Positions 29,051 to 46,676 of a stretch of DNA of 64,000 nucleotides are shown here, one piece after another. The notes under the pieces are model-generated. The model was not told the origin of the DNA, did no database searches, and worked only from the letters and a program-made list of their open reading frames with translations. This DNA comes from Escherichia coli O157:H7 (GTDB lineage Bacteria > Pseudomonadota > Gammaproteobacteria > Enterobacterales > Enterobacteriaceae). The stretch lies in assembly GCF_013167455.1 (NCBI RefSeq), contig NZ_CP038328.1; one strand, 5' to 3'. The position numbers and the translations under genes were made by a program. Every line of letters begins with the position of its first letter. Position 1 is the first letter of the stretch.

Positions 29051-29604
29051 AAGAGCAAGGTTTTTCTCTGCTGGAAGTGTTGATTGCTATGGCGATCAGT
29101 AGCGTATTGTTGTTGGGGGCTGCACGCTTTCTGCCTGCGTTACAGCGTGAAAGTTTAACGAGCACCCGTAAGCTGGCACTGGAAGATGAAATCTGGCTGC
29201 GGGTATTTACCGTCGCGAAGCATCTCCAGAGGGCGGGTTATTGTCATGGCATCTGTACCGGCGAAGGGCTGGAAATTGTCGGACAGGGTGACTGTATCAT
29301 TGTGCAGTGGGATGCGAACAGTAACGGTATCTGGGATCGCGAACCGGTAAAAGAGTCCGACCAGATTGGATTTCGTCTGAAGGAGCAAGTGTTGGAAACG
29401 CTACGCGGTGCGACATCCTGTGAAGGTAAGGGCTGGGATAAAGTCACTAATCCGGATGCCATCATTATCGACACTTTTCAGGTCGTACGTCAGGATGTCA
29501 GCGGCTTCTCGCCGGTGTTGACGGTTAATATGCGTGCTGCCAGTAAGTCTGAACCGCAAACCGTGGTGGATGCCAGCTATAGCGTGACAGGATTCAACCT
29601 GTGA
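29041..29604 (+). CDS. ppdB: prepilin-type minor pseudopilin (prepilin peptidase-dependent protein B)
   Basis: ORF-track ORF starts at 28801, but the prepilin N-terminus [25 protein letters not shown] begins at ATG 29041 (187 aa). Confidence 0.85.
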
Positions 29605-30008
29605 ACCGCGAAAAGGGTGTTTCGTCACTGGCTCTGGTCCTGATGCTGCTGGTTTTGGGTAGCTTGCTATTACAAGGAATGAGCCAGCAGGATCGCAGTT
29701 TTGCCTCTCGCGTGAGCATGGAAAGTCAGTCACTGCGCCGCCAGGCCATCGTTCAGTCGGCGTTGGCGTGGGGGAAAATGCACTCCTGGCAGACGCAGCC
29801 CGCAGTTCAGTGCTTACTGTACGCTGCCACTGGTGCCCGGGTTTGTTTGCGTTTACTGGAAGATAATGAAGCCTTATTAATTGCCGGTTATGAAGGCGTT
29901 TCGTTGTGGCGAACAGGCGAAGTCATTGATGGAAAAATTGTTTTTTCGCCACGCGGCTGGAGCGATTTTTGTCCGCTGAAAGAGGGGGCGTTATGTCAGC
30001 TTCCCTGA
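29601..30008 (+). CDS. ygdB: small membrane-anchored protein in the ppd operon
   Basis: 135-aa ORF with N-terminal hydrophobic segment; start overlaps ppdB stop. Confidence 0.8.
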
Positions 30009-33872: not shown

Positions 33873-36761
33873 ATGCCCCGCAGCACCTGGTTCAAAGCAT
33901 TATTGTTGTTAGTTGCCCTTTGGGCACCCTTAAGTCAGGCAGAAACGGGATGGCAGCCGATTCAGGAAACCATCCGTAAAAGTGATAAAGATAACCGCCA
34001 GTATCAGGCTATACGTCTGGATAACGGTATGGTGGTCTTGCTGGTTTCTGATCCGCAGGCAGTTAAATCGCTATCGGCGCTGGTGGTGCCCGTTGGGTCG
34101 CTGGAAGATCCCGAGGCGTACCAGGGGCTGGCACATTACCTTGAACATATGAGTCTGATGGGGTCGAAAAAGTACCCGCAGGCTGACAGTCTGGCCGAAT
34201 ATCTCAAAATGCACGGCGGTAGTCACAATGCCAGCACTGCGCCGTATCGCACGGCTTTCTATCTGGAAGTTGAGAACGACGCCTTGCCCGGTGCGGTAGA
34301 CCGCCTGGCCGATGCTATTGCAGAACCCTTGCTCGACAAGAAATACGCCGAACGTGAGCGTAATGCAGTGAACGCTGAATTAACCATGGCGCGTACACGT
34401 GACGGGATGCGCATGGCACAGGTCAGCGCAGAAACCATTAACCCGGCACACCCCGGTTCAAAGTTTTCTGGTGGTAACCTCGAAACTTTAAGCGACAAAC
34501 CTGGTAATCCGGTGCAGCAGGCGCTGAAAGATTTCCACGAGAAGTACTATTCCGCCAATTTGATGAAGGCGGTTATTTACAGTAATAAACCGCTGCCGGA
34601 GTTGGCAAAAATGGCGGCGGACACTTTTGGTCGCGTGCCGAACAAAGAGAGCAAAAAACCGGAAATCACCGTGCCGGTAGTCACCGACGCGCAAAAGGGC
34701 ATTATCATTCATTACGTCCCAGCGCTGCCGCGTAAAGTTCTGCGCGTTGAGTTTCGCATCGATAACAACTCAGCGAAGTTCCGCAGTAAAACGGATGAAT
34801 TGATTACCTATCTGATTGGTAATCGCAGCCCAGGTACACTGTCTGACTGGCTGCAAAAGCAGGGGTTAGTTGAGGGCATTAGCGCCAACTCCGATCCTAT
34901 CGTCAACGGCAACAGCGGCGTATTAGCGATCTCTGCGTCTTTAACCGATAAAGGTCTGGCGAATCGCGATCAGGTTGTGGCGGCTATTTTTAGCTACCTC
35001 AATTTGTTACGTGAAAAAGGGATCGATAAACAATACTTCGATGAACTGGCGAATGTGCTGGATATCGACTTCCGTTATCCGTCAATCACCCGTGATATGG
35101 ATTACGTCGAATGGCTGGCAGATACCATGATTCGCGTTCCTGTTGAGCATACGCTGGATGCAGTCAATATTGCCGATCGGTACGATGCTAAAGCAGTAAA
35201 AGAACGTCTGGCGATGATGACGCCGCAGAATGCGCGTATCTGGTATATCAGCCCGAAAGAGCCGCACAATAAAACGGCTTATTTTGTCGATGCGCCGTAT
35301 CAGGTCGATAAAATCAGCGAACAAACTTTCGCTGACTGGCAGCAAAAAGCTGCCAATATTGCGCTCTCCTTACCGGAGCTTAACCCCTATATTCCTGACG
35401 ATTTCTCGCTGATTAAGTCAGAGAAGAAATATGACCATCCAGAGCTGATTGTTGATGAGTCGAATCTGCGCGTGGTGTATGCGCCAAGCCGTTATTTTTC
35501 CAGCGAACCCAAAGCTGATGTCAGCCTGATTTTGCGTAATCCGAAAGCCATGGACAGCGCCCGCAATCAGGTGATGTTTGCGCTCAATGATTATCTCGCA
35601 GGGCTGGCGCTTGATCAGTTAAGCAACCAGGCGTCGGTTGGTGGCATAAGTTTTTCCACCAACGCTAACAACGGCCTTATGGTTAATGCTAATGGTTACA
35701 CCCAGCGTCTGCCGCAGCTGTTCCAGGCATTGCTCGAGGGATACTTTAGCTATACCGCTACGGAAGATCAGCTTGAGCAGGCGAAGTCCTGGTATAACCA
35801 GATGATGGATTCCGCAGAAAAGGGTAAAGCGTTTGAGCAGGCGATTATGCCCGCGCAGATGCTCTCGCAAGTGCCGTACTTCTCGCGAGATGAACGGCGT
35901 AAAATTTTGCCCTCCATTACGTTGAAAGAGGTGCTGGCTTATCGTGACGCCTTAAAATCAGGGGCTCGACCAGAGTTTATGGTTATCGGCAACATGACCG
36001 AGGCCCAGGCAACAACGCTGGCACGCGATGTGCAAAAACAGTTGGGCGCTGATGGTTCAGAGTGGTGTCGAAACAAAGATGTAGTGGTCGATAAAAAACA
36101 ATCCGTCATCTTTGAAAAAGCCGGTAACAGCACCGACTCCGCACTGGCAGCGGTATTTGTACCGACTGGCTACGATGAATACACAAGCTCAGCCTATAGC
36201 TCTCTGTTGGGGCAGATCGTACAGCCGTGGTTCTACAATCAGTTGCGTACCGAAGAACAATTGGGCTATGCCGTGTTTGCGTTTCCAATGAGCGTGGGGC
36301 GTCAGTGGGGCATGGGCTTCCTTTTGCAAAGCAATGATAAACAGCCTTCATTCTTGTGGGAGCGTTACAAGGCGTTTTTCCCAACCGCAGAGGCAAAATT
36401 GCGAGCGATGAAGCCAGATGAGTTTGCGCAAATCCAGCAGGCGGTAATTACCCAGATGCTGCAGGCACCGCAAACGCTCGGCGAAGAAGCATTGAAGTTA
36501 AGTAAAGATTTCGATCGCGGCAATATGCGCTTCGATTCGCGTGATAAAATCGTGGCCCAGATAAAACTGCTGACGCCGCAAAAACTTGCTGATTTCTTCC
36601 ATCAGGCGGTGGTCGAGCCGCAAGGCATGGCTATTCTGTCGCAGATTTCCGGCAGCCAGAACGGGAAAGCCGAATATGTGCATCCTGAAGGCTGGAAAGT
36701 GTGGGAGAACGTCAGCGCGTTGCAGCAAACAATGCCCCTGATGAGTGAAAAGAATGAGTGA
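33873..36761 (+). CDS. ptrA: protease III (pitrilysin), periplasmic M16 zinc metalloprotease
   Basis: 962-aa ORF with signal peptide and HxxEH motif (HYLEH). Confidence 0.96.
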   Translation: MPRSTWFKALLLLVALWAPLSQAETGWQPIQETIRKSDKDNRQYQAIRLDNGMVVLLVSDPQAVKSLSALVVPVGSLEDPEAYQGLAHYLEHMSLMGSKKYPQADSLAEYLKMHGGSHNASTAPYRTAFYLEVENDALPGAVDRLADAIAEPLLDKKYAERERNAVNAELTMARTRDGMRMAQVSAETINPAHPGSKFSGGNLETLSDKPGNPVQQALKDFHEKYYSANLMKAVIYSNKPLPELAKMAADTFGRVPNKESKKPEITVPVVTDAQKGIIIHYVPALPRKVLRVEFRIDNNSAKFRSKTDELITYLIGNRSPGTLSDWLQKQGLVEGISANSDPIVNGNSGVLAISASLTDKGLANRDQVVAAIFSYLNLLREKGIDKQYFDELANVLDIDFRYPSITRDMDYVEWLADTMIRVPVEHTLDAVNIADRYDAKAVKERLAMMTPQNARIWYISPKEPHNKTAYFVDAPYQVDKISEQTFADWQQKAANIALSLPELNPYIPDDFSLIKSEKKYDHPELIVDESNLRVVYAPSRYFSSEPKADVSLILRNPKAMDSARNQVMFALNDYLAGLALDQLSNQASVGGISFSTNANNGLMVNANGYTQRLPQLFQALLEGYFSYTATEDQLEQAKSWYNQMMDSAEKGKAFEQAIMPAQMLSQVPYFSRDERRKILPSITLKEVLAYRDALKSGARPEFMVIGNMTEAQATTLARDVQKQLGADGSEWCRNKDVVVDKKQSVIFEKAGNSTDSALAAVFVPTGYDEYTSSAYSSLLGQIVQPWFYNQLRTEEQLGYAVFAFPMSVGRQWGMGFLLQSNDKQPSFLWERYKAFFPTAEAKLRAMKPDEFAQIQQAVITQMLQAPQTLGEEALKLSKDFDRGNMRFDSRDKIVAQIKLLTPQKLADFFHQAVVEPQGMAILSQISGSQNGKAEYVHPEGWKVWENVSALQQTMPLMSEKNE

Positions 36762-40296: not shown

Positions 40297-42122
40297 TGAA
40301 ATTGCAAAAGCAATTACTGGAAGCTGTGGAGCACAAACAGCTACGCCCGCTGGACGTGCAGTTTGCCCTGACCGTGGCGGGAGATGAACATCCTGCCGTC
40401 ACCCTCGCGGCGGCACTGTTAAGTCATGATGCCGGAGAGGGGCACGTTTGTTTGCCGCTTTCACGACTGGAAAATAATGAGGAGTCGCATCCGCTGTTGG
40501 CGACCTGTGTCAGTGAAATCGGTGAGCTACAAAATTGGGAAGAATGCTTGCTGGCTTCACAAGCGGTCAGCCGGGGAGATGAACCCACGCCGATGATCCT
40601 CTGTGGCGATCGTCTTTATTTGAATCGCATGTGGTGTAACGAGCGGACGGTAGCGCGCTTCTTCAATGAGGTGAATCATGCCATCGAGGTGGATGAAGCC
40701 TTGTTGGCGCAAACCCTGGATAAACTCTTTCCGACTGGTGATGAAATTAACTGGCAAAAAGTGGCGGCAGCAGTGGCGCTGACGCGGCGGATCTCGGTGA
40801 TTTCCGGCGGCCCTGGCACCGGTAAAACGACCACCGTAGCGAAGTTGCTGGCAGCGTTAATTCAAATGGCCGACGGCGAACGCTGCCGTATCCGTCTGGC
40901 TGCACCAACGGGTAAAGCTGCCGCGCGCTTAACCGAATCTCTCGGCAAGGCTTTGCGACAGTTACCGCTGACCGATGAACAAAAGAAACGTATTCCGGAA
41001 GATGCCAGTACTTTGCACCGATTGCTGGGTGCGCAGCCGGGTAGCCAGCGTTTACGTCATCATGCCGGTAACCCGCTGCATCTTGATGTGCTGGTGGTAG
41101 ATGAAGCGTCAATGATCGATCTGCCTATGATGTCGAGACTGATCGACGCCTTGCCCGATCATGCGCGAGTGATCTTTCTCGGCGATCGTGATCAACTGGC
41201 CTCGGTTGAGGCTGGGGCTGTGCTGGGCGATATCTGCGCTTATGCCAATGCCGGCTTTACCGCCGAGCGTGCCGGGCAGCTAAGCCGCCTGACGGGAACT
41301 CACGTTCCGGCAGGAACTGGCACAGAAGCGGCATCTTTGCGCGACAGTCTCTGCCTGCTGCAAAAAAGCTATCGTTTCGGCAGCGATTCTGGCATTGGTC
41401 AGTTAGCTGCGGCGATCAACCGTGGTGATAAAACGGCAGTGAAAACCGTTTTTCAGCAGGATTTTACTGATATTGAAAAACGGCTTTTACAGAGCGGCGA
41501 AGATTATATTGCGATGCTTGAGGAAGCTCTTGCGGGTTATGGACGTTATCTGGATCTGCTGCAAGCGCGTGCCGAGCCGGATTTAATCATTCAGGCGTTC
41601 AATGAGTACCAACTTTTGTGCGCCCTGCGGGAAGGGCCATTTGGCGTGGCTGGACTGAATGAGCGAATTGAGCAGTTTATGCAACAGAAGCGCAAAATTC
41701 ATCGTAATCCGCACTCTCGTTGGTACGAAGGCCGACCGGTGATGATTGCCCGTAATGACAGCGCGCTTGGGTTGTTTAATGGCGATATCGGTATTGCGCT
41801 GGATCGCGGGCAGGGGACGCGCGTCTGGTTTGCGATGCCGGACGGCAATATTAAGTCTGTGCAACCGAGTCGCTTGCCAGAGCACGAAACTACGTGGGCG
41901 ATGACGGTACATAAATCGCAGGGATCGGAGTTCGACCATGCGGCGTTGATTTTACCGAGCCAACGCACGCCGGTAGTAACGCGAGAGCTGGTTTATACCG
42001 CGGTGACCCGCGCGCGTCGCCGTCTGTCGCTGTATGCCGATGAGCGCATATTAAGTGCGGCAATCGCCACTCGTACTGAGCGGCGCAGTGGTCTGGCGGC
42101 GTTGTTTAGTTCACGGGAATAA
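40296..42122 (+). CDS. recD: exodeoxyribonuclease V (RecBCD) alpha subunit, helicase
   Basis: 608-aa ORF with Walker A (GGPGTGKTT); start overlaps recB stop. Confidence 0.96.
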
Positions 42123-42132
42123 ACGTAATTGC

Positions 42133-42169
42133 CGGATGCGACGTACGAGTGTTACGCATGTCGCATCCG
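42133..42169. repeat. REP-like palindrome between convergent recD and argA
   Basis: Perfect 10-bp inverted repeat CGGATGCGAC ... GTCGCATCCG (42133-42142 / 42160-42169). Confidence 0.6.
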
Positions 42170-42183
42170 ACGATTTTCATCGC

Positions 42184-43515
42184 TTACCCTAAATCCGCCA
42201 TCAACACTTTGGATTTACGCTGGTAGTTGTACAACTGCTTTTTGCTTTCGGGCAATAAATCAATATCCACCGGGGTAAATCCACGTTCCTGGAACCAGTG
42301 AATACTGCGCGTGGTCAGCACAAACAATTTGCTTAAGCCGCTCTGCTTCGCCTGAGCGGCAATGCGTTCCAGCAGAACCTCGCCCCGTGATGAGCTGCGG
42401 TAATCCGGGTGAACTGCCACACAGGCCATTTCCCCAATCTTCTCTTCCGGGAACGGATAGAGCGCGGCGCAGGCAATAGTCGTGTTATCGCGCTGAATAA
42501 TGGTGAATTTGTCGATTTCCATCTCCAGCTGCTCGCGAGAACGGCGTACCAGAATACCTTGCTGCTCCAGCGGGCGAATCAACTCCAGAATACCGCCGAT
42601 ATCGTTGATTGTTGCGCGACGAATCTGCTCGGCGCTTTCCATCACAATCTGCGTACCGATACCGTCGCGTGAGAACAACTCTTGCAACAGCGCGCCATCT
42701 TCCTGATAACTGATTAAATGACAGCGACGCACGCCGCTGCGGCAGGCTTTCACTGCGCCACGCAAAAAGCGCACCGTACCGGAGTTGTAATCGCCTTTCT
42801 CTTCCTGGGCTTCTACCCGCGCTTGCGCTTCGTTAGGGAAAAGTTCGGAGACAATATCACCGTCGTCATTAGTGACGCCCTGGGAAGAGCAAAAACCAAT
42901 CATCTTCTCAGCTTTCAGTTTGATGGCCAGTTGAGTGGCAATCTCTTCCGAGGTCAGATTAAAGCTCTCGCCAGTGACTGAAACAGCGACCGGCCCCATT
43001 AGCACTATTGCACCGCTGTCCAGTTGACGATGGATCGCGTCTTCATCAATCCGCCGGATACGCCCGCTATGGCAGTAATCCACGCCGTCATCGACGCCCA
43101 GCGGCTGGGCAATAATAAAATTGCCACTGACGACGTTGATATGCGCGCCCTGTAGCGGCGTGTTATTGAGACTCATCGACAGGCGAGCAGTAATATCCAG
43201 TTGCAATGTTCCCGCAGCCTGCTTCACCAGTTCCAGTGTTTTGGCGTCGGTCACACGTATATTCTTGTGATACAGCGGTTCGTGGTGATGCGCAGCCAGA
43301 TTTGCGTCGATCTGCGGACGTGCGCCATAGACCACCACCAGACGGATGCCGAGGCTGTGCAACAACCCGATATCATTAACGATACTGGAGAAATTCTCAT
43401 GCTCAATGGCTTCACCGCCGAGCATGATGACAAACGTTTTTCCCCGGTGGGTATTGATATAGGGAACCGAATGGCGGAATCCCTCGACCAGCTCGGTTTT
43501 ACGTTCCTTTACCAC
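42184..43515 (-). CDS. argA: amino-acid N-acetyltransferase (N-acetylglutamate synthase)
   Basis: ORF-track ORF is 465 aa, but ArgA begins (M)[35 protein letters not shown] at the GTG at 43515-43513 (443 aa). Confidence 0.92.
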
Positions 43516-43519
43516 GGCA

Positions 43520-43600
43520 CACCTCTTTGCATTATTATTCGAATTTATTGTATTTTTATTCTGTTTTTTCGCAGGGTGCAAGTGTAAATTTTATGCGAGA
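43520..43600 (-). promoter_or_regulatory. argA promoter region with putative ArgR operator (ARG boxes)
   Basis: AT-rich sequence CATTATTATTCGAATTTATTGTATTTTTATTC just upstream of the argA start resembles tandem ARG boxes; not rigorously scored. Confidence 0.4.
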
Positions 43601-43746
43601 GCGACTTTTTTATCAGTAATGGCGTGAATATAAAAAGAATGTTTACCGTTTATTAGATGACAGATTATGCGTCTTTCGCTAAAGTTTCCGGTCAAATTAG
43701 TCGTTTACTTGTTACACAGCTTAGATTTCTTTTGCTCGGGAGAGGC

Positions 43747-45000
43747 ATGTCAGGATCCAACACTGCAATCAGCCGTCGTCGTTTACTGCAAGGCGCGGGT
43801 GCCATGTGGCTATTGAGCGTAAGTCAGGTCAGTCTGGCTGCGGTCAGCCAGGTCGTGGCGGTGCGCGTCTGGCCTGCGTCCAGCTACACCCGCGTGACGG
43901 TAGAATCAAATCGTCAGCTGAAATATAAGCAGTTCGCGTTGAGTAACCCGGAACGCGTGGTGGTGGATATCGAAGATGTAAACCTGAACTCGGTACTCAA
44001 GGGGATGGCGGCACAAATTCGTGCAGACGACCCGTTCATCAAGTCGGCGCGCGTCGGGCAATTTGACCCGCAAACCGTACGGATGGTTTTTGAATTAAAG
44101 CAAAACGTAAAACCGCAGCTGTTTGCCCTTGCGCCGGTCGCCGGGTTTAAAGAGCGTCTGGTGATGGACCTCTATCCGGCCAATGCACAGGATATGCAGG
44201 ACCCGCTGCTGGCGCTGCTGGAGGATTACAACAAAGGCGACCTCGAAAAGCAGGTGCCGCCAGCGCAAAGTGGTCCACAACCAGGTAAAGCAGGGCGCGA
44301 TCGTCCGATTGTCATTATGCTTGACCCTGGCCACGGTGGCGAAGACTCCGGTGCGGTGGGGAAATACAAAACGCGCGAAAAAGATGTGGTATTGCAAATA
44401 GCTCGCCGTTTGCGCTCTCTGATCGAGAAAGAGGGCAATATGAAGGTGTACATGACGCGCAATGAAGACATCTTCATTCCGTTGCAAGTGCGCGTAGCAA
44501 AAGCTCAGAAACAGCGTGCTGACCTGTTTGTCTCTATCCATGCCGACGCCTTTACCAGTCGCCAGCCGAGCGGTTCCTCGGTGTTTGCGCTCTCAACCAA
44601 AGGTGCAACCAGTACTGCGGCAAAATATCTGGCACAAACCCAGAACGCCTCCGACTTGATTGGTGGCGTGAGCAAAAGCGGTGACCGCTATGTCGACCAC
44701 ACCATGTTCGATATGGTGCAGTCGCTGACCATTGCTGACAGCCTTAAGTTTGGTAAAGCGGTGCTGAATAAGCTCGGTAAAATCAACAAGCTGCATAAAA
44801 ATCAAGTTGAACAGGCCGGGTTTGCCGTACTAAAGGCACCAGATATTCCCTCCATTCTGGTCGAAACGGCGTTTATCAGTAACGTTGAGGAAGAGCGTAA
44901 ACTGAAAACGGCGACCTTCCAGCAGGAAGTTGCGGAGTCTATTCTTGCGGGAATTAAAGCGTATTTTGCCGATGGGGCGACCCTGGCGAGAAGGGGATGA
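43747..45000 (+). CDS. amiC: N-acetylmuramoyl-L-alanine amidase AmiC (Tat-exported)
   Basis: ORF-track ORF starts at 43657; AmiC begins [23 protein letters not shown] (twin-arginine signal) at ATG 43747 (417 aa). Confidence 0.9.
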
Positions 45001-45001
45001 T

Positions 45002-45027
45002 AAAAAGGCGCTGAATGGCGCTTTTTT
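45002..45027 (+). terminator. possible terminator after amiC
   Basis: Short GCGC-TGAATG-GCGC hairpin flanked by an A-run and a T-run; weak stem. Confidence 0.4.
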
Positions 45028-45041
45028 ATAGGAGACCAGAA

Positions 45042-45066
45042 ACAAAAAAACACCCGTTAGGGTGTT
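45042..45066 (-). terminator. rho-independent terminator of the tRNA-fMet cluster
   Basis: Minus-strand hairpin AACACCC-TAAC-GGGTGTT followed by TTTTTTT (plus strand 45044-45050 are A). Confidence 0.7.
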
Positions 45067-45073
45067 CAATAAT

Positions 45074-45150
<77 letters not shown>

Positions 45151-45183
45151 TCACCGTACTGCTTTTACTTCATCAAATTTGAT

Positions 45184-45260
<77 letters not shown>

Positions 45261-45293
45261 TCACCGTACTGCTTTACTTCATCAAATTTTAAT

Positions 45294-45370
<77 letters not shown>

Positions 45371-45578
45371 TCCGTGGATGCGCACTATACTCCGCTCGCG
45401 TTTTCATGCAACCTTTTTTTTACCCCGATCACGGATCTGGCATGATTTTGAACAAAAACAAATCACTAAAGCCTATTTTTTGTGCAAAATTTGCGTCAGG
45501 GAGAGGCTGCTCATTTCATTAAACGCGGTGGTTTGTTATCTTCGTTGCGCCTTATTTTTTAACCTGAAGAAGAGAACA

Positions 45579-46676
45579 ATGAAAGGACGTTGGGTAAAGT
45601 ACCTTCTTATGGGCACGGTTGTGGCAATGCTTGCCGCCTGCTCTTCCAAACCAACCGATCGCGGACAGCAATATAAAGACGGGAAATTTACCCAGCCTTT
45701 CTCTCTGGTGAACCAGCCAGATGCCGTTGGCGCGCCGATTAACGCCGGTGATTTTGCCGAGCAAATTAACCATATCCGTAATTCGTCACCGCGTCTGTAT
45801 GGCAACCAGAGTAATGTTTATAACGCGGTGCAAGAGTGGCTGCGCGCAGGCGGTGATACCCGCAATATGCGCCAGTTCGGCATTGATGCCTGGCAGATGG
45901 AAGGTGCCGACAACTATGGTAACGTGCAGTTTACAGGCTATTACACGCCGGTAATTCAGGCGCGCCATACCCGCCAGGGCGAGTTCCAGTATCCTATTTA
46001 CCGTATGCCGCCAAAACGTGGTCGTCTGCCGTCTCGTGCGGAGATCTACGCGGGTGCATTGAGCGATAAGTACATCCTCGCTTACAGCAACTCTCTGATG
46101 GATAATTTCATTATGGATGTGCAGGGTAGTGGGTATATCGACTTTGGTGATGGCAGTCCGCTTAACTTTTTCAGCTATGCAGGGAAAAACGGTCATGCCT
46201 ATCGCAGCATTGGTAAGGTGCTGATCGACCGTGGCGAAGTGAAAAAAGAAGATATGTCGATGCAGGCGATTCGTCATTGGGGCGAAACACACAGTGAAGC
46301 CGAGGTTCGCGAGCTGCTGGAACAGAACCCGTCTTTCGTTTTCTTTAAACCGCAATCTTTTGCACCGGTGAAAGGGGCAAGTGCGGTGCCGCTGGTTGGC
46401 CGTGCTTCTGTTGCCTCTGATCGTTCCATTATCCCACCAGGTACAACCTTGCTGGCAGAAGTGCCGCTGCTGGATAATAACGGCAAATTTAACGGTCAGT
46501 ACGAATTGCGTCTGATGGTGGCGTTGGATGTCGGTGGCGCAATCAAAGGCCAACACTTCGATATTTATCAAGGGATCGGGCCGGAAGCCGGACACCGCGC
46601 AGGTTGGTACAACCACTATGGACGTGTCTGGGTGCTGAAAACCGCCCCGGGCGCAGGTAACGTCTTTAGCGGCTGA
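45579..46676 (+). CDS. mltA: membrane-bound lytic murein transglycosylase A (lipoprotein)
   Basis: ORF-track ORF starts at 45297 inside the tRNA cluster; MltA begins MKGRWVKYLLMGTVVAMLAACSS (lipobox) at ATG 45579 (365 aa). Confidence 0.93.
   Translation: MKGRWVKYLLMGTVVAMLAACSSKPTDRGQQYKDGKFTQPFSLVNQPDAVGAPINAGDFAEQINHIRNSSPRLYGNQSNVYNAVQEWLRAGGDTRNMRQFGIDAWQMEGADNYGNVQFTGYYTPVIQARHTRQGEFQYPIYRMPPKRGRLPSRAEIYAGALSDKYILAYSNSLMDNFIMDVQGSGYIDFGDGSPLNFFSYAGKNGHAYRSIGKVLIDRGEVKKEDMSMQAIRHWGETHSEAEVRELLEQNPSFVFFKPQSFAPVKGASAVPLVGRASVASDRSIIPPGTTLLAEVPLLDNNGKFNGQYELRLMVALDVGGAIKGQHFDIYQGIGPEAGHRAGWYNHYGRVWVLKTAPGAGNVFSG

Follow-up and report, generated by a model that had tools for sequence, protein, structure and literature searches.

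The argA upstream region of Escherichia coli O157:H7 carries a conserved promoter overlapped by a predicted tandem ARG-box operator

The two ARG boxes of arginine operators are separated by 3 bp, rarely by 2 bp, and carAB P2 is a footprinted ArgR-repressed promoter of this kind. In the canonical arrangement, two 18-bp boxes with a 3-bp spacer lie over the promoter, and at the promoters of strongly repressed genes both boxes are bound by the hexameric, arginine-bound ArgR (PMC6640053; PMC6245113; PMC4381063). Binding of ArgR and of RNA polymerase to carAB P2 is reported to be mutually exclusive (PMC6245113), and ArgA itself is stated to be under both feedback inhibition and ArgR-mediated transcriptional control (PMC1413537). 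Here we analyzed a 64,000-nt stretch of E. coli O157:H7 DNA (the window) that includes the upstream region of argA. Our analysis indicates with near certainty that the interval between positions 43516 and 43746 contains the argA promoter and the classical tandem ARG-box operator of E. coli, to which ArgR is predicted to bind. This operator, the promoter and the GTG start of the gene are textbook regulation, already known and not a discovery, and recovery of such a classical regulatory element from raw sequence has little significance beyond annotation quality. What the analysis adds is detail, that is, the exact box boundaries, the promoter hexamers, the transcription start, the leader, and the true start codon. 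In addition, the argA site is usable as a positive control in motif-based scans.

Comparison with the other ArgR operators of E. coli K-12 revealed both shared and distinctive features of argA. Like argA, carAB P2 has two boxes with a 3-bp spacer, with 10 nt between their end and a non-ATG start codon; the transcription start listed for P2 (29620) also falls within the box spacer (K-12 carA upstream region, 29602-29640). However, carAB is also transcribed from P1, a pyrimidine-controlled promoter further upstream, and is subject to many extra factors, whereas argA has one transcription start and no further conserved motifs. At argF, argI and argE/argCBH, the 18+3+18 layout likewise overlaps a promoter that serves arginine biosynthesis. 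The argA boxes depart further from the consensus (4 mismatches, ~13-14 bits per box) than the boxes of argF and argI (2 mismatches and 18.7-23.1 bits per box), and weaker binding is therefore predicted at argA. The argE/argCBH operator is shared by divergent genes, whereas the argA operator is located ~150 bp from the amiC start, clear of the amiC promoter.

Mapping of the EDL933 RefSeq annotation onto the window placed 43516..43746 exactly at the 231-bp divergent intergenic region between argA and amiC. On the minus strand, argA (42184..43515) encodes the 443-aa N-acetylglutamate synthase, as given by the list of open reading frames and by the RefSeq annotation of both EDL933 and K-12 (b2818). 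On the plus strand, amiC (43747..45000, EDL933 and K-12 annotation) encodes a Tat-exported amidase, with the twin-arginine motif SRRRLLQG close to its annotated N-terminus. The same mapping identified recD upstream, and three tRNA-Met genes and mltA downstream, a gene order that is conserved in K-12. Over 451 bp around the argA-amiC region, the sequence shows 100% identity to E. coli O157:H7 genomes, EDL933 among them, and this stretch was found in 5425 of the 5426 complete E. coli genomes. The argR gene, which is located outside the window, was likewise found in 5425 of the 5426. An Rfam scan of positions 42000-46000 at permissive E-values returned only three tRNA genes, with no match in the intergenic region, and a terminator scan of 43400-43850 yielded none.

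To locate the boxes, we scanned both strands of the 64 kb with the published ARG-box consensus arranged in tandem as WNTGAATWWWWATTCANW-N3-WNTGAATWWWWATTCANW. The best match was the argA site, with 4 mismatches over the 32 specified positions, followed by a runner-up with 7; none of 200 shuffles of the entire window that preserved dinucleotide content yielded a match with fewer than 7 mismatches. In the argA site, a 3-bp spacer separates two imperfect palindromes of 18 bp; together they occupy 43526..43564 and end 10 nt before the GTG, so that the argA strand reads ACAGAATAAAAATACAAT-AAA-TTCGAATAATAATGCAAA-GAGGTGTGCC-GTG. The distal box 1 (43547..43564, minus strand; ~-18 to -1) and the start-codon-proximal box 2 (43526..43543, minus strand; ~+4 to +21) have 2 consensus mismatches each, and score 13.8 and 13.2 bits, respectively. 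The AAA spacer (43544..43546, minus strand) contains the transcription start at 43546. A sequence-only reading of this DNA had likened the AT-rich string CATTATTATTCGAATTTATTGTATTTTTATTC upstream of argA to tandem ArgR operators. This string occurs a single time in the window (43530..43561), inside the 39-bp site, and stops 4 nt short of the full site at one end and 3 nt short at the other. The proposed likeness is well founded, since the site is the top tandem match in the window and is conserved in 80 of 80 related loci.

We further built a weight matrix from 12 symmetrised boxes of the K-12 carA, argF, argI, argG, argD and argE/C operators, excluding argA. The tandem boxes that we located in these six training operators agree with the sequences of the classical literature. 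On this independent matrix, the argA pair scored 27.0 bits, whereas the next site of the window reached 12.1 bits and the maximum over 300 window shuffles was 20.6 bits (mean 6.8, sd 3.8). The position-weight-matrix scan suggested by the sequence-only reading thus uncovered a significant ARG-box score in the interval, at the top of the window. Taken one by one, the argA boxes (~12-15 bits each) are at the low end of the range of the training boxes (12.3-23.1 bits). Two further ARG-like matches were evident in the window. One is a tandem at 2601-2639 with 7 mismatches, whose boxes score 15.6 and -3.5 bits, within the yqeK coding sequence in an AT-rich ETT2 region; the other is a single box of 14.4 bits at 34696-34713 within the ptrA coding sequence. 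Both lie in coding sequence and were discarded as operators, being probably chance matches.

Conservation of the site was then assessed in a set of 80 loci retrieved by scanning representative bacterial genomes with the ArgA protein (79 other Enterobacteriaceae and one E. coli; 89-99% identity). The best tandem site was sought in the 260 nt upstream of each gene, and the upstream alignments comprised 81 loci with 50 distinct operator sequences. The best tandem ARG site lies 10-14 nt before the start codon in each of the 80 related loci, with scores of 20.9-33.8 bits. The 18+3+18 geometry was constant in 81 of 81 loci, with a spacer that always measures 3 bp and varies in its A/T sequence. Among the 50 distinct operator sequences, both boxes keep G4, A6, T7, A12, T13, C15 and A16 without exception. 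Box 2 keeps C3 G4 A5 A6 T7 A8, A12 T13, C15 and A16, and varies at positions 1, 2, 10, 11, 14, 17 and 18, as well as at position 9 in one sequence only. Box 1 varies only at positions 1-3, 17 and 18, besides position 5, which differs in 1 of the 50 sequences; all other positions between 4 and 16 are invariant. The varying positions of the operator are those at which the consensus is degenerate, plus the spacer. Box 1 is conserved beyond the need of ArgR contacts, which fits a second role as the -10 region; part of its conservation signal is therefore due to the overlapping -10 element and not to the operator.

The sequence-only reading had also called for a comparison with the mapped argA promoter. 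SMRT-Cappable-seq in K-12 lists a single start for b2818 (argA), at 2949210 forward (PMC6131387, supplementary file 4). The alignment between K-12 and the window is gapless, and this start, measured in K-12 and not in O157:H7, maps to window position 43546, an A in the box spacer, with an uncertainty of ~1 nt to either side given that forward coordinates were taken as 0-based by reference to thrL. The thrL transcription start is at position 148. The same table lists it at 147 (PMC6131387), and its forward coordinates are therefore apparently 0-based. The supplements of further genome-wide transcription-start studies contain no argA entry. With the start in the spacer, the boxes extend from ~-18 to +21, over the -10 element, in agreement with the proposed operator. 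This layout over the -10 element and the start would be the usual arrangement for steric exclusion.

Counting from the mapped start, the putative -10 region is TAAAAAT (43552..43558, minus strand), which lies within box 1, is invariant in 81 of 81 loci, and stands 17 nt from the putative -35 hexamer TTGCAC (43576..43581, minus strand). The latter matches the consensus at 3 of 6 positions, which explains why this promoter was not called by a simple promoter scan, and it overlaps the CTTGC block (43582-43578) that is at least 95% conserved across the 81 loci. Further upstream, at ~-41 to -47, the A/T tract AAAATTT (43586..43592, minus strand) includes AAATT (43591-43587), conserved at 80-95%, and is possibly an UP-element-like sequence. 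Two other candidates were rejected. The minus-strand promoter called by the scan, CTGATA-17-TAAAAT (43616 to 43588), has an unconserved -35, and the sole listed K-12 argA start is ~35 nt further downstream; TACAAT (43552-43547), as a -10 element, would end at -1 relative to the mapped start.

These features suggest a simple regulatory scheme, for which ArgR binding, its arginine dependence and the exclusion mechanism are taken from established knowledge or inference. argA would be transcribed from a sigma-70 promoter, consisting of TTGCAC (43581-43576), a 17-nt spacer and TAAAAAT (43558-43552), with its start at ~43546 and a 31-nt leader carrying the GAGG Shine-Dalgarno sequence and the GTG at 43515. 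With the -10 element, the start site and the early leader all lying under the boxes, bound ArgR would keep RNA polymerase from forming a productive complex, and production of N-acetylglutamate synthase, which catalyzes the first step of the arginine pathway, would be switched off; upon arginine scarcity, ArgR would leave and argA would be transcribed. The box match, the spacer, the matrix score, the promoter overlap, the arginine gene downstream, the conservation of the site and the presence of argR all agree with an ArgR operator. A more elaborate version of this scheme is a composite operator, at which ArgR would act with or against an AT-preferring protein (e.g., Lrp, IHF or H-NS) beyond simple exclusion. 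ArgR and Lrp are reported to compete at artPIQM (PMC6640053), a ChIP-exo study with 62 loci argues for DNA bending and other transcription factors in ArgR regulation (PMC4381063), and the A/T tract upstream of the -35 hexamer is conserved. However, the 81-locus alignment revealed no second conserved motif between 43596 and 43637, and the conserved blocks are all accounted for by promoter elements or ARG boxes, which renders a composite operator improbable.

Even less credit is due to the notion that the AT-rich stretch is promoter DNA only, its resemblance to ARG boxes arising from AT richness in a region that ArgR does not bind. The argA upstream region is indeed 65-66% A+T, and box 1 holds the -10 element and is invariant even where ArgR takes A or T, so promoter constraint adds to the conservation of this box. 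Nonetheless, shuffles that preserve composition never came near the observed match, as none of 5000 derived from the 231-bp intergenic region and none of 5000 derived from the local 65 bp reached 4 mismatches. Box 2 is even more informative, because it lies downstream of the start, where no promoter element is expected, yet it has kept the high-information ARG positions, with conservation that correlates with the information of the independent matrix (Spearman rho 0.67, p = 0.002). The invariant 18+3+18 geometry in 81 loci and the ArgR control of argA described in the literature (PMC1413537) further argue against promoter DNA alone. We therefore retain a tandem ArgR operator superimposed on the argA promoter as the preferred reading.

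The start codon of argA had been proposed from the letters alone to be the GTG at 43513..43515 (minus strand), preceded by an in-frame extension that is probably untranslated, and both proposals proved sound. The codon appears as cac on the plus strand, is followed on the minus strand by GTA AAG GAA CGT (V K E R), and agrees with the RefSeq annotation. At the same position, the 81 loci have GTG (62) or ATG (19), an interchange that is expected solely of an initiation codon. The putative Shine-Dalgarno sequence GAGG (43522..43525, minus strand), assigned by position and complementarity to the 3' end of 16S rRNA, lies 6 nt before the GTG, and GAGG or AAGG directly follows box 2 in nearly all of the 80 related loci. 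The stretch upstream of the GTG is free of in-frame stops for 25 codons, and 22 of these, from a TTG, make up the extension (43516..43581, minus strand; 465 aa in the list of open reading frames versus 443 aa as annotated). Translation from this TTG, with a 22-residue N-terminal extension and the GTG as an internal valine codon, is hardly tenable, since it is favored by the uninterrupted frame in E. coli but the TTG (43581) is part of the -35 hexamer, with the sole listed K-12 argA start 35 nt further downstream, and is hence outside the mRNA, nothing Shine-Dalgarno-like precedes it, and an in-frame stop interrupts the frame 3-7 codons upstream of the annotated start in most relatives, so that the extension seen in E. 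coli is not conserved. The ribosome-binding site, the start-codon interchange, the upstream stops and the transcript boundary 31 nt upstream (leader 43516..43546, minus strand, from the K-12 transcription start to the GTG) together support the GTG as the real argA start and an untranslated extension, which would be an accident of an absent stop codon in E. coli.

The leader also contains an out-of-frame mini-ORF at 43509-43532, ATG CAA AGA GGT GTG CCG TGG TAA (MQRGVPW*), which begins 14 nt into the leader within box 2 and whose end overlaps argA codons 2-3. A functional role of this mini-ORF is unlikely, because its ATG is missing in species whose box 2 reads ATTCA.

We next compared the O157:H7 operator with those of other E. 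coli strains. The intergenic regions of O157 and K-12 differ at 4 positions, 3 of them within the 39-bp operator (Fisher p = 0.016), namely at 43533, 43544 and 43548 (~+14, +3 and -2), which are all degenerate or spacer positions. Both operators share the 39-bp geometry, the core positions, the 10-nt distance to the GTG, the Shine-Dalgarno sequence and the -35 hexamer. Where they differ, O157:H7 has A at box 1 position 17, at the third spacer base and at box 2 position 11, whereas K-12 has C, T and C, respectively. These substitutions alter the matrix score by under 1 bit (27.8 in O157:H7 versus 27.3 in K-12). Of 5426 complete E. coli genomes, 308 carry the exact 70-bp allele of the O157 type and 2091 that of the K-12 type. 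In seven further strains, variation affects these same degenerate positions and the flank of the Shine-Dalgarno sequence, but never the core positions. Variation of the operator within E. coli at degenerate positions only, with the O157:H7 allele in the minority, is a mildly new, descriptive observation. It is conceivable, although rather unlikely, that the O157 allele alters how strong the argA promoter is, or the arginine level at which repression sets in, within the lineage; if so, it would be a small natural regulatory polymorphism at the first step of arginine biosynthesis. As a separate observation, E. coli Z0117EC0098 has a net 8-bp insertion in the operator (equivalent to ~43530-43560) that would disrupt the 18+3+18 layout. 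The change resembles a duplicated TTCGAATAAT combined with the loss of two single bases, and could reflect either a genuine mutation of the operator or a faulty assembly.

On the amiC side of the region, the promoter scan identified a plus-strand promoter at 43657..43694, with ATGACA (43657-43662) as -35, TAAAGT (43680-43685) as -10 and a start at ~43694. Both hexamers are at least 95% conserved in the 81 loci, and the K-12 start listed for b2817 (amiC), 2949063 reverse, maps to window position ~43694 (SMRT-Cappable-seq, PMC6131387). An in-frame extension of amiC, 30 codons long, runs from an ATG at 43657 to the annotated ATG at 43747; the upstream ATG overlaps the -35 and precedes the mapped start, so the extension is spurious, as at argA. 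Just upstream of the amiC -35, the block TGTTTACC.TTT (43640-43651) is conserved to the same extent and contains GTAAA on the opposite strand. amiC is reported to be a direct CpxR target in Salmonella (PMC6361445), and TGTTTACC.TTT may be the CpxR site; no full GTAAA-N5-GTAAA match was seen at the amiC promoter (43638-43694).

Finally, the tRNA-Met genes beyond amiC are three tandem initiator copies on the minus strand at 45077-45370, scoring 61.4 bits each. In K-12 they are metZ, metW and metV. Their antisense strand gives rise to spurious open reading frames with the recurring peptide RGPDLNRRPSGYEPDELPGCSTPR.
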